The notes under the pieces: generated by a model | Database searches by the model: none | What the model was told of the DNA's origin: nothing | Seen by the model: the letters and a program-made list of their open reading frames with translations, nothing else | Program-made: the position numbers and the translations under genes | In this document: positions 21,917 through 26,268 of the stretch, in pieces | How the letters are laid out: the number at the start of each line of letters is the position of its first letter | Position numbering within the stretch: position 1 is the stretch's first letter | DNA from: Escherichia coli | Lineage (GTDB): Bacteria > Pseudomonadota > Gammaproteobacteria > Enterobacterales > Enterobacteriaceae | NCBI RefSeq assembly: GCF_044647545.1 | Contig: NZ_CP172818.1 | Strand: one strand, 5' to 3' | DNA: 64,000 nucleotides

Positions 21917-23161
21917 TTACTGATACACCGGCAGCAAATTAAAGCTCGATAAGATATGGACCAGTGCGTTGCCAACGCCAAATACCAGAATCAGCATAAT
22001 CATCGGCTTGCCGCCCCAGACGCGGAATTTCGGGCTACCAAAGCGTTTACGCGATGCGCGGGCCAACAGCGCCGGAACAATTGCCGCCCAGATGGTAGCC
22101 GCTAAGCCAGCATAACCAATGGCGTACAGGAATCCGTTAGGAAACAGCAGGCCACCCACAACAGGCGGGGCAAAGGTCAGCAACGCTGTTTTCAAACGGC
22201 CCATAGCCGAGTCGTCGAAACCAAACAGATCTGCCAGATAGTCAAACAAACCCAGCGTTACGCCAAGGAACGAACTCGCTACCGCAAAGTTTGAGAATAC
22301 GACCAGCAGAAGATCCAGGCTACGGCTGTTCAGCACGCCGCTTAACGCCTGTACCAGCACATCAATATTACCGCCCTTCTCGGCGATGCCGATAAACTCC
22401 GGACGAGGGATGTTGCCCATCGTCGCCAGCAACCAGATGGTATACAGCGCCAGCGCCATCAGCGTACCGTACACCAGGCATTTCACGATGGTTTTCGGAT
22501 CTTTGCCGTAATACTTCATCAGGCTCGGCACGTTACCGTGATAACCAAACGATGCCAGACAGAATGGCAGTGTCATCAGCAGATACGGCGCATAAGACGC
22601 ATTGCTTTCGGCGACGTTGAACAATGTCGCAGGCTGTACATGCCCCAGTAGGCTACCGAAGGTGAGGAAGAAGGTAATGACTTTCGCACCCAGCACAATC
22701 GCCGTCATCCGGCTGACCGCTTTGGTGCTCAACCACACCACAAACGCCACCAGCAGTGCAAAACCAAAACCCGCTGCCCGTGCCGGGACGTTCAATGACA
22801 TCTCTGCGAAGGTATGATGCAGAATCGAACCGCTGGCAGAAATATAGGCATAGGTCAGGATATAGAGCACAAAGGCAATGGAAATGCCGTTGACCACGTT
22901 CCAGCCTTTGCCCAGCAAATCTTTGGTGATGGTGTCAAAGCTAGAACCGATTCGGTAATTCAGGTTAGCTTCCAGAATCATCAAGCCGGAATGCAGCATA
23001 CAGAACCAGGTAAAGATCAGCGCCGCCATTGACCAGAAGAACCACGCCCCGGACATGACCACAGGCAGAGAAAACATCCCTGCGCCAATAATGGTGCCGC
23101 CGATAATCACCACGCCGCCAAGCAGCGACGGTGACGTTTGGGTGGTGGTTAGTGTTGCCAT
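21917..23161 (-). CDS. mtr: Mtr, high-affinity tryptophan permease
   Basis: 414-aa hydrophobic ORF. Confidence 0.92.
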
Positions 23162-23206
23162 GAGGGCTTCTCTCCAGTGAAAAATAGTGCGACTGCGTTG
23201 TTATGC

Positions 23207-23290
23207 ATTGCACTGTACCAGTACATGAGTACAAAAGACAGAAAAAAAGCCCCGATTGTTAAAATCGGGGCTGTATATATTATTTTACAG
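23207..23290 (-). promoter_or_regulatory. mtr promoter/operator region (TrpR-type operator and TyrR-box-like palindrome)
   Basis: Minus strand reads tgtactcatgtactggtacagtg (GTACT repeats typical of TrpR operators); palindrome ctgtatatattattttacag resembles TGTAAA-N6-TTTACA. Confidence 0.45.
23242..23271 (-). terminator. Rho-independent terminator downstream of deaD
   Basis: Minus strand agccccgattttaacaatcggggc hairpin followed by a T7 run. Confidence 0.6.
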
Positions 23291-23314
23291 ACTGTATTCG
23301 CTGTTCAGCGATGA

Positions 23315-25204
23315 TTACGCATCGCCACCGAAACGACGACGACCGGTAGAGTCATCACGACGCGGTGCGCGGCCTTCACGACGTTCGCCGCTAAAACGAC
23401 GACCATCACCACGGCCACCTTCACGGCGTTCACCGCTGAAGTTACGACCGCCTTCACGACGTTCGCCACCGAAACCACGACCACCGCCACGACGCTCACC
23501 GCCAGTATGCGGCTGTGCATCGCCCAGTAACTGCATATTCATCGGCTTGTTGAGAATGCGAGTACGCGTAAAGTGTTGCAGCACTTCACCCGGCATACCT
23601 TTCGGCAGTTCGATGGTGGAGTGAGAAGCAAACAGCTTGATGTTACCGATGTAACGGCTGCTGATGTCGCCTTCGTTAGCAATCGCACCAACGATATGAC
23701 GAACTTCAACACCATCATCGCGGCCCACTTCAATGCGGTACAGCTGCATATCGCCAACATCACGACGTTCACGACGCGGACGATCTTCACGGTCACCACG
23801 CGGGCCACGGTCGTTACGATCGCGCGGACCACGGTCATCACGGTCACGGAATTCACGTTTCGGACGCATCGGCGCATCTGGCGGAACAATCAGAGTACGT
23901 TCACCCTGTGCCATTTTCAGCAGTGCGGCGGCCAGAGTTTCGAGATCCAGCTCTTCACCTTCTGCCGTCGGCTGAATTTTGCTCAGCAGTGCACGGTATT
24001 GATCCAGATCGCTGCTTTCCAGCTGCTGCTGTACTTTAGCGGCGAATTTTTCCAGACGACGTTTGCCCAGCAGTTCTGCGTTCGGCAGTTCAACTTCCGG
24101 AATGGTCAGCTTCATGGTGCGTTCAATGTTACGCAGCAGACGACGCTCACGGTTCTCAACGAACAGCAGCGCACGGCCAGCACGGCCCGCACGACCAGTA
24201 CGACCGATACGGTGAACGTAAGACTCAGAATCCATCGGGATATCGTAGTTAACTACCAGGCTGATACGCTCAACGTCCAGGCCACGGGCCGCAACGTCGG
24301 TCGCAATCAGGATGTCCAGACGACCATCTTTCAGTCGTTCCAGTGTCTGCTCACGCAGCGCCTGGTTCATGTCACCGTTCAGCGCGGCGCTGTTGTAGCC
24401 GTTACGCTCAAGGGCTTCTGCCACTTCCAGAGTCGCGTTTTTGGTACGAACGAAGATAATCGCCGCATCAAAATCTTCCGCTTCCAGGAAACGTACCAGT
24501 GCTTCGTTTTTACGCATACCCCAGACAGTCCAGTAGCTCTGGCTGATGTCAGGACGGGTAGTCACGCTGGACTGAATGCGCACTTCCTGCGGCTCTTTCA
24601 TAAAGCGGCGGGTAATGCGACGAATCGCTTCCGGCATGGTTGCAGAGAACAGAGCGGTCTGATGACCTTCCGGGATCTGCGCCATAATAGTTTCAACGTC
24701 TTCGATGAAGCCCATGCGCAGCATTTCGTCAGCTTCATCCAGAACCAGACCGCTCAGTTTAGAGAGGTCCAGAGTGCCACGTTTCAGGTGGTCCAGCAGA
24801 CGGCCCGGAGTACCGACAACGATCTGCGGCCCCTGACGCAGGGCGCGTAATTGCACGTCATAACGCTGGCCGCCGTACAGGGCAACCACATTTACGCCGC
24901 GCATGTGTTTAGAGAAATCCGTCATTGCCTCAGCAACCTGTACCGCCAGTTCGCGGGTCGGTGCCAACACCAGAATCTGTGGTGCTTTCAGCTCAGGATC
25001 AAGATTCTGCAGCAGAGGTAAAGAGAATGCTGCAGTTTTTCCGCTCCCCGTCTGGGCCATACCCAGGACGTCGCGGCCATTCAGCAGATGTGGAATACAC
25101 TCTGCCTGAATTGGAGATGGTTTTTCGTAACCCAGATCGTTAAGGGCTTCAAGGATAGGAGCCTTCAGGCCCAGATCTGCAAAAGTGGTTTCGAATTCAG
25201 CCAT
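23315..25204 (-). CDS. deaD: DeaD (CsdA) cold-shock DEAD-box RNA helicase
   Basis: ATG at 25204 ([33 protein letters not shown]), 629 aa, DEAD box present; the track ORF begins 22 codons upstream. Confidence 0.92.
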
Positions 25205-25277
25205 GTAGTACGTGTGCCTCAAAATTAATGGCGGCCAGTCTACATAACTCATCATGAAATTGATCAGCAATTTTCAT
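25197..25277 (-). CDS. yrbN: YrbN, 26-aa small protein encoded in the deaD leader
   Basis: ATG at 25277, translation [26 protein letters not shown], stop overlapping the deaD start codon; matches the recalled 26-aa size of yrbN. Confidence 0.65.
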
Positions 25278-25383
25278 TGAAAAGTGTGAACCGGCTCAAA
25301 GTAGGTGTATTAACGAACAACAACGCCCTCACCCGTTAAGGTGATGGCAATCAAAAAAGATTACGGGCTGATGTGTACGTCAG

Positions 25384-26268
25384 CTATTGCTGGTCCGATT
25401 CTGCCAGGTCATCTTGGTCCTGGCCCAGGAGCGATAATTCCAACAATGCGTATCGGTGCTCAACAAAGTTATGAACGTTGTTGGCAACCGCCAGTTTGAA
25501 CAGTGCCGTGGCGCTGTCCAAATCCCCCAGACTTAGGTAGTACTTACCTAAATAGAAGTTGGTTTCACTGAGATGCTCAGCGAGCGAGGTGTTATCCGTT
25601 GCGTCCGCCTTGAGCCTTTCCATTAACGTTTGTTCGCTAATGTTGCCCAGGTAGAACTCGACAATGTTCCATCCCCACTGTTCCTTATCCGATTTTTCGA
25701 AGTGCTGTTTCAACACTTCTTTAGCCTGCTTCTCATCGAGCTTCTGCTCGGCGAGATAAAGCCACAGACTACGGAAAGGATCATTAGGATCGTCTTGATA
25801 AAACGCCAGCAGATCATCTTGCGCTAACTTGTCACGACCGCCGTAATATAATGCGATCCCGCGATTCAAGTGCGCGTAGTTGTAAGTTGGATCAAGCTCA
25901 AGTACAGAATCAAACGCTTCATAGGCAGCATCAAAATTGCCTGCCTGCGTTAAATATATGCCTAAGTAATTGAATACTTCAGGCATATCCGGTCGGATTG
26001 CCAGCGCTTGCGAAAAATCGTTACGCGCTAATGCCCTCAGACCGAGACTATCATACAACACTCCGCGCTCATATAAAAGCTGTGCGCGTTCGTCATCGGT
26101 TAAAGCCCGACTGGCAAGGATTTGTTCCATACGTGCCAGAATCACTTCCTGCTGTAAAGTCGGTTGCAATGGTACCGCGAGGACTTCACTTTTACGCCAG
26201 GAAGTATTACTGCATCCTGCAAGCGTAAGTGCTGTCGCAACGAAACACCAGCGCAAAAAAGGCTTCAT
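25384..26268 (-). CDS. nlpI: NlpI, TPR-repeat outer-membrane lipoprotein
   Basis: 294-aa ORF with lipoprotein signal LTLAGC. Confidence 0.92.

Follow-up and report, generated by a model that had tools for sequence, protein, structure and literature searches.

The 3' end of deaD in Escherichia coli reads as a short and imperfect tandem repeat that is crossed by open frames on both strands, which raises the question of whether the repetition belongs to the DNA, to the encoded protein or to a further gene, and what it might be for. Here, we show for a window of 64,000 nt (the whole stretch of DNA that was analysed), using profile searches, shuffling and codon-resampling controls, structure prediction and comparisons across genomes, that this region corresponds to the 3' end of deaD (csdA), which encodes a tail of about 65 residues after the folded DbpA-type RNA-binding domain. 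The account that best explains the observations as a whole, and in which we have high confidence, is that this tail is a disordered, arginine-basic repeat, that the repetition arises at the level of the protein and that the tail would work as a tether for RNA.

The deaD gene and its encoded tail

The minus-strand open frame at this locus runs from 25270 to 23315, and a start at MAEFETTF (25204) yields the 629-aa DeaD/CsdA protein, a cold-shock RNA helicase. Its assignment to DeaD/CsdA follows from a full-length match to the NCBIfam equivalog NF008642 above the curated cut-off (1397.5 bits against 989; residues 1-629 on profile positions 1-628). PF00270, PF00271, PF25399 and PF03880 all score above their own cut-offs, and the Pfam domains occur in the order expected for DeaD: DEAD 30-196, Helicase_C 232-340, DeaD_dimer 374-443, DbpA 489-558 and DeaD_C 568-629. 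In a K-12 derivative, RefSeq deaD has the same 1890 nt, and deaD is the sole feature annotated under the match in every E. coli genome listed. Downstream on the same strand lies mtr (21917-23161), and nlpI and pnp lie upstream. A terminator-like hairpin about 43 nt past the deaD stop codon is probably the deaD terminator. The coordinates of all features are collected in Table 1.

Table 1. Features at the 3' end of deaD, in coordinates of the window.
Feature	Position	Strand	Basis or remark
deaD (csdA) CDS	23315..25204	-	629 codons, stop codon 23315-23317; ORF list, Pfam, NCBIfam
DbpA-type RNA-binding domain (RRM-like)	23531..23740	-	Pfam PF03880, residues 489-558; directly precedes the tail
Arg/Gly/Glu-rich C-terminal tail, residues 565-629 (predicted disordered)	23318..23512	-	PF12343, structures, AlphaFold, composition
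Repeat unit 1, 11 residues (568-578)	23471..23503	-	Repeat finding, translation
Repeat unit 2, 11 residues (579-589)	23438..23470	-	Repeat finding, alignment
Repeat unit 3, 15 residues (590-604)	23393..23437	-	45-nt spacing
Partial unit 4 (SGERREG), then non-repeated 18-residue end	23318..23392	-	Repeat comparison, tail listing
Intrinsic-terminator-like hairpin	23248..23272	-	10 bp, 6 G-C pairs, then TTTTTTT
Phantom antisense ORF, 122 aa, TTG start	23256..23624	+	ORF list; not a gene
Second phantom ORF, 71 aa, Val-rich	23305..23520	-	Out-of-frame reading of the repeat on the deaD strand

The tail is predicted to be intrinsically disordered, as a preliminary description of the locus had proposed, and three lines of evidence agree on this point. 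The Pfam family PF12343 (DeaD_C, "DeaD helicase C-terminal disordered region") is matched over its full profile (positions 1-62 of 62), C-terminal to the DbpA domain, and scores 49 bits when the tail is searched alone and 45.6 bits within the full-length protein (cut-off 23.3). In an AlphaFold run on residues 440-629 with an alignment of 78 sequences, residues 562-629 were modelled with pLDDT values of 43-47 and devoid of secondary structure, and the RNA-binding domain was modelled as a series of elements E-H-E-E-H-E with a pLDDT of about 70. Finally, the solved CsdA structures, deposited in PDB entries named DeaD, comprise residues 6-210 (5gju), 218-445 (5gi4) and 481-564 (5b88, identical to the DeaD segment except for its own first residue); the constructs end at residue 564, and none of the CsdA entries in the PDB covers residues 565-629. 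The tail is thus an ordinary region that is already catalogued as Pfam DeaD_C, and what we describe in E. coli DeaD/CsdA is the same region as PF12343, with no difference of substance.

Repetition at the level of the protein

The tail is made up of three full copies and one partial copy of a unit of 11-15 residues, with the pattern [GS]GERR[GE]GGR..F. With Tandem Repeats Finder, a single array is detected in the tail (23408-23503; period 33 nt, 2.9 copies, 71% matches), and a repeat search places the repeat families at 23369-23499 with start-to-start spacings of 45, 33 and 33 nt. The period of roughly 21-30 nt given in the preliminary description is therefore to be replaced by 33 nt (11 codons), with one unit of 45 nt (15 codons). 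Likewise, a repeat is indeed present within 23315-23520, the extent given there, but the repeat proper occupies only about 23372-23503, and the remainder is made up of the stop codon, the non-repeated terminal segment and a QPHT lead-in. Counted from residue 564 (66 residues after ..GDA), the tail contains 20 G, 19 R, 7 E and 4 D and carries a net charge of +8; arginine (29%) and glycine (30%) dominate the composition, and the basic charge comes from arginine only.

Is this self-similarity more than an effect of biased composition? Measured as identity at the best offset over the whole tail, it is not significant (0.50 against 0.47 +/- 0.02, with 101 of 1000 shuffles reaching the observed value). 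This measure is uninformative because the composition lifts every in-frame offset, while the repeat signal is local, and we used a local diagonal score in its place. The best ungapped diagonal in the DNA scores 27, against 12.9 +/- 2.1 when the 68 tail codons are shuffled, and for the protein the best diagonal stands at 12.5, where residue shuffles give 4.0 +/- 0.8; neither observed score is reached in any of 1000 shuffles. The self-similarity that the preliminary description had expected is thus present in the DNA and in the protein, and its reading of degenerate GERREGG-like repeats encoded in the deaD 3' end, including the translation that it quoted, was correct.

To separate the two levels, the protein was held fixed and each codon was redrawn from the codon usage of deaD outside the tail (500 draws). 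Resampling gives a DNA diagonal of 26.0 +/- 4.5, and 213 of the 500 draws reach the observed 27. As synonymous codons drawn in this way reproduce the DNA score, the DNA repeat is a by-product of the protein repeat, and it is fully explained by that repeat together with the CGT/GGT/GGC/GAA codon bias of deaD. Within the tail, arginine is encoded by 17 CGT and 2 CGC codons, glycine by GGT and GGC only, and glutamate by 6 GAA and 1 GAG; of 43 positions with identical residues in aligned units, 26 also agree in codon, where 23.3 +/- 3.8 would be expected. In addition, the units are old, since orthologous units are closer to each other than paralogous ones: over the 24-nt unit cores, E. coli and Salmonella enterica subsp. 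diarizonae have identities of 1.0, 1.0, 0.92 and 0.79 in the four orthologous units, and units within E. coli have pairwise identities of only 0.58-0.83. Concerted evolution or recent duplication, which we considered as an origin of the array, is rejected on the same grounds and by the lack of any excess of shared codons.

Length alleles in E. coli and alternatives at the DNA level

Of 5,426 complete E. coli genomes searched with a 501-nt query around the tail, 5,425 give a match, and strain FDAARGOS_497 matches at 100% identity. Coverage of the query reaches 80% or more in 5,423 of the 5,425, and tail length is almost uniform within the species. Two in-frame length alleles were seen. Strains Q65, SCU-313 and 7CC share the same 633-aa protein (WP_001306022.1), in which a 12-nt tandem duplication adds REGG to unit 2; the 166 genomes in the 90-95% identity band, two of which were sampled, give an upper estimate of about 3% for the frequency of this allele. 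In FXCREC035, an in-frame deletion of 132 nt between two GCGTCGTG copies removes all repeats and leaves a protein of 585 aa. Either the repeats may be dispensable under some conditions, or this assembly may be in error. The tract is able to slip and is not hypervariable. It was also considered as a contingency (phase-variable) locus, a class in which copy number differs widely between strains and its changes usually shift the frame, and from which the tract departs by its units of 33 and 45 nt, its near-uniform coverage and the presence of only two in-frame alleles.

Could the repeat nevertheless serve a function as DNA or RNA, either as an mRNA structure or regulatory element or as a slippage-prone contingency tract that varies the length of the tail? 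That both E. coli length variants arise at short direct repeats would fit such a function, but we consider it very unlikely. Codon resampling on a fixed protein already yields the observed repeat score, the units are imperfect (71% matches) multiples of three, and length alleles are uncommon among the E. coli genomes searched. A search of 22800-25500 with Rfam for structured RNA in or beside the tail gave four matches; each scored far under the gathering threshold of its family, and they all lie at 23230-23333, where the terminator hairpin and its neighbouring sequence are located.

A protein-coding role for the other frames is even less likely. The proline/arginine-rich antisense frame that the preliminary description had called a phantom is present and is rich in proline, arginine and serine (23 P, 23 R and 20 S; together 54%), and its 122 codons are uninterrupted, as one would expect of a genuine overlapping gene. 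However, the substitutions follow the deaD frame: of the 29 tail substitutions that separate E. coli from Salmonella, 24 fall at deaD third codon positions, and the four differences from a K-12 derivative are all synonymous third-position changes in deaD. In two of the three antisense frames, no stop codon interrupts the tail region in 60 and 51, respectively, of 83 sequences, because arginine, glycine and glutamate codons read backwards hold no stops, and open antisense frames are hence found in most species by composition. The antisense TTG start falls inside the terminator hairpin, neither this frame nor the out-of-frame one on the deaD strand matches Pfam, and no annotation other than deaD is present at the antisense frame in any genome listed. 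Substitution pattern, Pfam and annotation thus all speak against an antisense gene, and we regard the probability that either frame is a real overlapping gene as negligible. The antisense and out-of-frame frames are compositional artefacts, and the earlier judgement that there is no separate gene holds.

The tail across Enterobacterales and its possible role in RNA binding

The comparison of tail lengths suggested in the preliminary description was carried out with one genome per species, which gave 80 Enterobacterales loci ranging from Escherichia albertii to Serratia, Rahnella, Pantoea and Edaphovirga. None of the 80 lacks the tail, which measures 53 to 97 aa after the conserved ..LLGDA, with a median of 72, next to a DbpA-type RNA-binding domain whose alignment columns are nearly invariant. 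Tails contain between one and five GERR motifs, with 11 aa (51 cases) and 15 aa (46 cases) as the most common spacings, and Klebsiella, Raoultella and Kluyvera are among the genera with an extra short repeat, APRRDD(S/A). Arginine, glycine and glutamate make up 28%, 26% and 11% of the tail residues, with 1675 arginines against 2 lysines, and I, L, V, M, W, Y and C together account for 18 of 5,897 tail residues in 79 species. Although the lengths span a nearly two-fold range, the net charge is confined to +7 to +11, since basic and acidic residues increase in parallel (r = 0.97 between positive and negative counts). The tail evolves through the occasional in-frame gain or loss of whole or partial units, and both its use of arginine and its net charge (about +7 to +11) are retained.

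Beyond the order, we sampled 150 representatives of DeaD-like clusters at 50% identity. The RNA-binding domain is present in 134 of them, and in 104 of these 134 it is accompanied by a tail of 20 aa or longer. Only six representatives have more than one ERR motif, and the distant tails, which are rich in Lys, in Arg/Gly or in Arg/Asp, show no relation in sequence. What is conserved is thus the kind of tail, and not its sequence.

What could such a tail contribute to the helicase? From its composition and by analogy with other proteins, we infer that it would be a flexible, sequence-nonspecific electrostatic tether for RNA. Such a tether would raise the local concentration of RNA for the dimeric helicase core and the RNA-binding domain and would favor strand annealing, and the multivalent Arg/Gly/Phe/Glu units could contribute to the RNA-dependent condensates that have been reported for DeaD. 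A flexible, arginine-rich tether and annealer that would add avidity and multivalency to a dimeric helicase is the best-supported model, and, by the same analogies, RNA binding by the tail itself is plausible. CsdA speeds up RNA annealing without ATP, and its basic C-terminal region has been named as the likely seat of this ATP-independent annealing, with reference to tethering by the tails of Mss116p and CYT-19 (PMC3590231). For a 32-mer, PMC11850223, summarising Xu et al. 2017, gives affinities of 0.07 µM for full-length CsdA, about 1 µM for the isolated RNA-binding domain and 28 µM for the dimeric core. In vitro, purified DeaD undergoes a phase separation that depends on protein and salt, and in cells it forms condensates (PMC12758526). 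In the literature searched, the coverage of which was partial, we found no direct test of residues 565-629 alone.

The known systems on which the analogy draws resemble the DeaD tail to different degrees. The basic tails of Mss116p and CYT-19 are likewise disordered, positively charged extensions that follow the core and a C-terminal domain, and they have been proposed to tether the proteins nonspecifically to structured RNA (Mallam et al. 2011, known here through its citation in PMC3590231). Unlike these tails, to which it is not homologous in sequence, the tail of DeaD comes after an RRM-like domain of a dimeric helicase and has GERREGG-type repeats and many acidic residues, and its tethering is suggested by analogy. 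The C-terminal regions of RhlE are similarly fast-evolving, basic and disordered additions to a DEAD-box core; they set functional specificity and tune RNA binding and phase separation (PMC11260450). RhlE is a different paralogue, however, which has neither a dimerisation domain nor a DbpA-type RNA-binding domain, and the sequences are unrelated.

The tail is RG-rich by composition only and does not form a canonical RGG box, which was considered as a candidate class: it contains one RGG and a single di-RG (RGGGRG), and no tri-RGG, di-RGG or tri-RG. Arginine methylation is a hallmark of eukaryotic RGG boxes; it is not expected in E. coli, which is not known to have PRMTs. The classes tri-RGG, di-RGG, tri-RG and di-RG are said to have been defined by Thandapani et al. 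in 2013. Similar to the DeaD tail, eukaryotic GAR/RGG domains, such as that of fibrillarin (Nop1), are Gly/Arg-rich, disordered and more variable between species than folded domains, and they bind RNA nonspecifically and promote phase separation (PMC12862394). The DeaD tail differs from them by its regular spacing of glutamate (ERRE) and phenylalanine. A counterpoint to an RNA tether is the large number of acidic residues in the tail, eleven in 66.

Not every property of the tail is explained by bulk charge. In 78 aligned Enterobacterales sequences, conservation reaches 90% or more in the GERREG core of unit 2 and in the terminal RRR, and the tails of 79 species end in RRRFGGDA in 28 cases and in ..RRRFGDA or ..RRRDA in most others. 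A near-invariant core and an RRRFG(G)DA end are not explained by a tether that acts purely through bulk charge, and this pattern of conservation suggests a sequence-specific constraint, possibly a protein partner. The tail might accordingly be mainly a specific protein-protein or regulatory module, for ribosomal, degradosome or protease docking or as a degron, and not a generic RNA tether. Such a role would fit with the view that DEAD-box proteins contact their partners through C-terminal extensions (PMC1616957) and with the C-terminal degrons described for CrhR-type helicases (PMC9117542). We nonetheless consider it unlikely, as a high content of arginine and glycine with arginine as the only source of basic charge is typical of disordered regions that bind nucleic acids, as the length and the number of units vary freely between genera, and as distant homologues bear unrelated basic low-complexity tails instead.

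A further possibility, put forward here only tentatively, is that selection acts on the bulk properties of the tail and not on its sequence. These properties would be the exclusive use of arginine, nearly compensating gains of acidic and basic residues, and a net charge of +7 to +11 at lengths from 53 to 97 residues, and the number of charge-balanced GERREGG units would tune the RNA-dependent condensation of DeaD or its behaviour in cold adaptation in each genus. If so, the natural E. coli alleles of 633 aa and 585 aa would be ready-made test cases, and the result would refine known ideas on the disordered regions of DEAD-box proteins and go no further.

In conclusion, the region belongs to one of the best-studied bacterial helicases and its value as a discovery is small. 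For genome annotation, a tandem repeat flagged at the deaD 3' end reflects an Arg/Gly/Glu repeat of the protein, written in the biased codons of the gene, and long Pro/Arg/Ser-rich or Val-rich frames over this end should not become gene calls. The natural length alleles could be used to probe the role of the tail in E. coli, and the comparative data neatly illustrate how a disordered tail retains its composition and net charge through changes in length and sequence.

Tail-length alleles within E. coli

A 633-aa allele of the cold-shock RNA helicase DeaD (WP_001306022.1) recurs in the E. coli strains Q65, SCU-313 and 7CC (loci L001, L084 and L085), where a 12-nt tandem duplication, at ~23450–23461 in window coordinates, adds REGG to repeat unit 2 of the disordered, GERREGG-type C-terminal tail. 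The identity band containing this allele comprises up to ~166 of 5,425 genomes, a figure that is an upper estimate of the allele's frequency. A 132-nt in-frame deletion between two copies of GCGTCGTG (~23361–23492 in window coordinates) is found in strain FXCREC035 (L002), the assembly of which provides a candidate allele, annotated as intact, for a 585-aa DeaD without any GERREGG repeat.

Searching E. coli genomes with the window at 23200–23700 revealed 100% identity to one strain. Identity of at least 99% is reached in only 169 of the 5,425 genomes and most of the 5,425 lie at 95–99%; the lineage of the window therefore constitutes a minority of sequenced E. coli. The same segment is 97.8% identical to that of a K-12 derivative; in the tail-coding DNA, four sites differ between the window and K-12, all synonymous.

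Ends of the gene and the interdomain linker

The hairpin detected by the terminator scan is positioned ~43 nt 3′ of the deaD stop codon and is probably the deaD terminator. It looks bidirectional, because on the plus strand it is preceded by an A-run and the same scan makes a terminator-like call there too. Rfam returned weak matches only for 23230–23333 (anti-hemB, Trp_leader and others), every one far under threshold. At the 5′ end, RefSeq gives deaD as the 629-aa form (1890 nt), and the ORF list contains an extended frame that begins with a TTG at 25270 and yields a 651-aa ORF.

The dimerisation domain of DeaD is joined to its RNA-binding domain by a second low-complexity stretch, for which AlphaFold reports a pLDDT of ~50–55, and which includes a 24-nt tandem pair encoding DRGPRDRN and DRGPRGDR (families D5/D6 of the repeat search).

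Features at and around deaD, with positions along the window
Feature	Position	Strand	Basis
10-bp hairpin AGCCCCGATT..AATCGGGGCT with T-run	23248–23272	minus	terminator scan
Arg/Ser-rich phantom ORF arising from the linker	23733–23975	plus	ORF list
Arg/Asp/Glu-rich low-complexity linker, DeaD residues 445–480	23765–23872	minus	sequence
Open deaD frame, 22 codons 5′ of the annotated ATG	25205–25270	minus	ORF list

The tail across Enterobacterales

Close to the end of the tail, a second short repeat, APRRDD(S/A), occurs in 2–4 copies in Klebsiella, Raoultella, Kluyvera, Pseudocitrobacter and others (L009–L026, L038 and further loci), as exemplified by Raoultella terrigena (..APRREGHAPRRDDSAPRREDSAPRRDD..); the E. 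coli tail contains it once only. Among the 80 Enterobacterales deaD loci compared (L004–L083), tail length ranges from 53 to 97 aa, yet net charge is held at +7 to +11. Basic residues in these tails are nearly all arginine (1675 R vs 2 K), and their number follows that of the acidic residues with r = 0.97, a raw value that is uncorrected for phylogeny.
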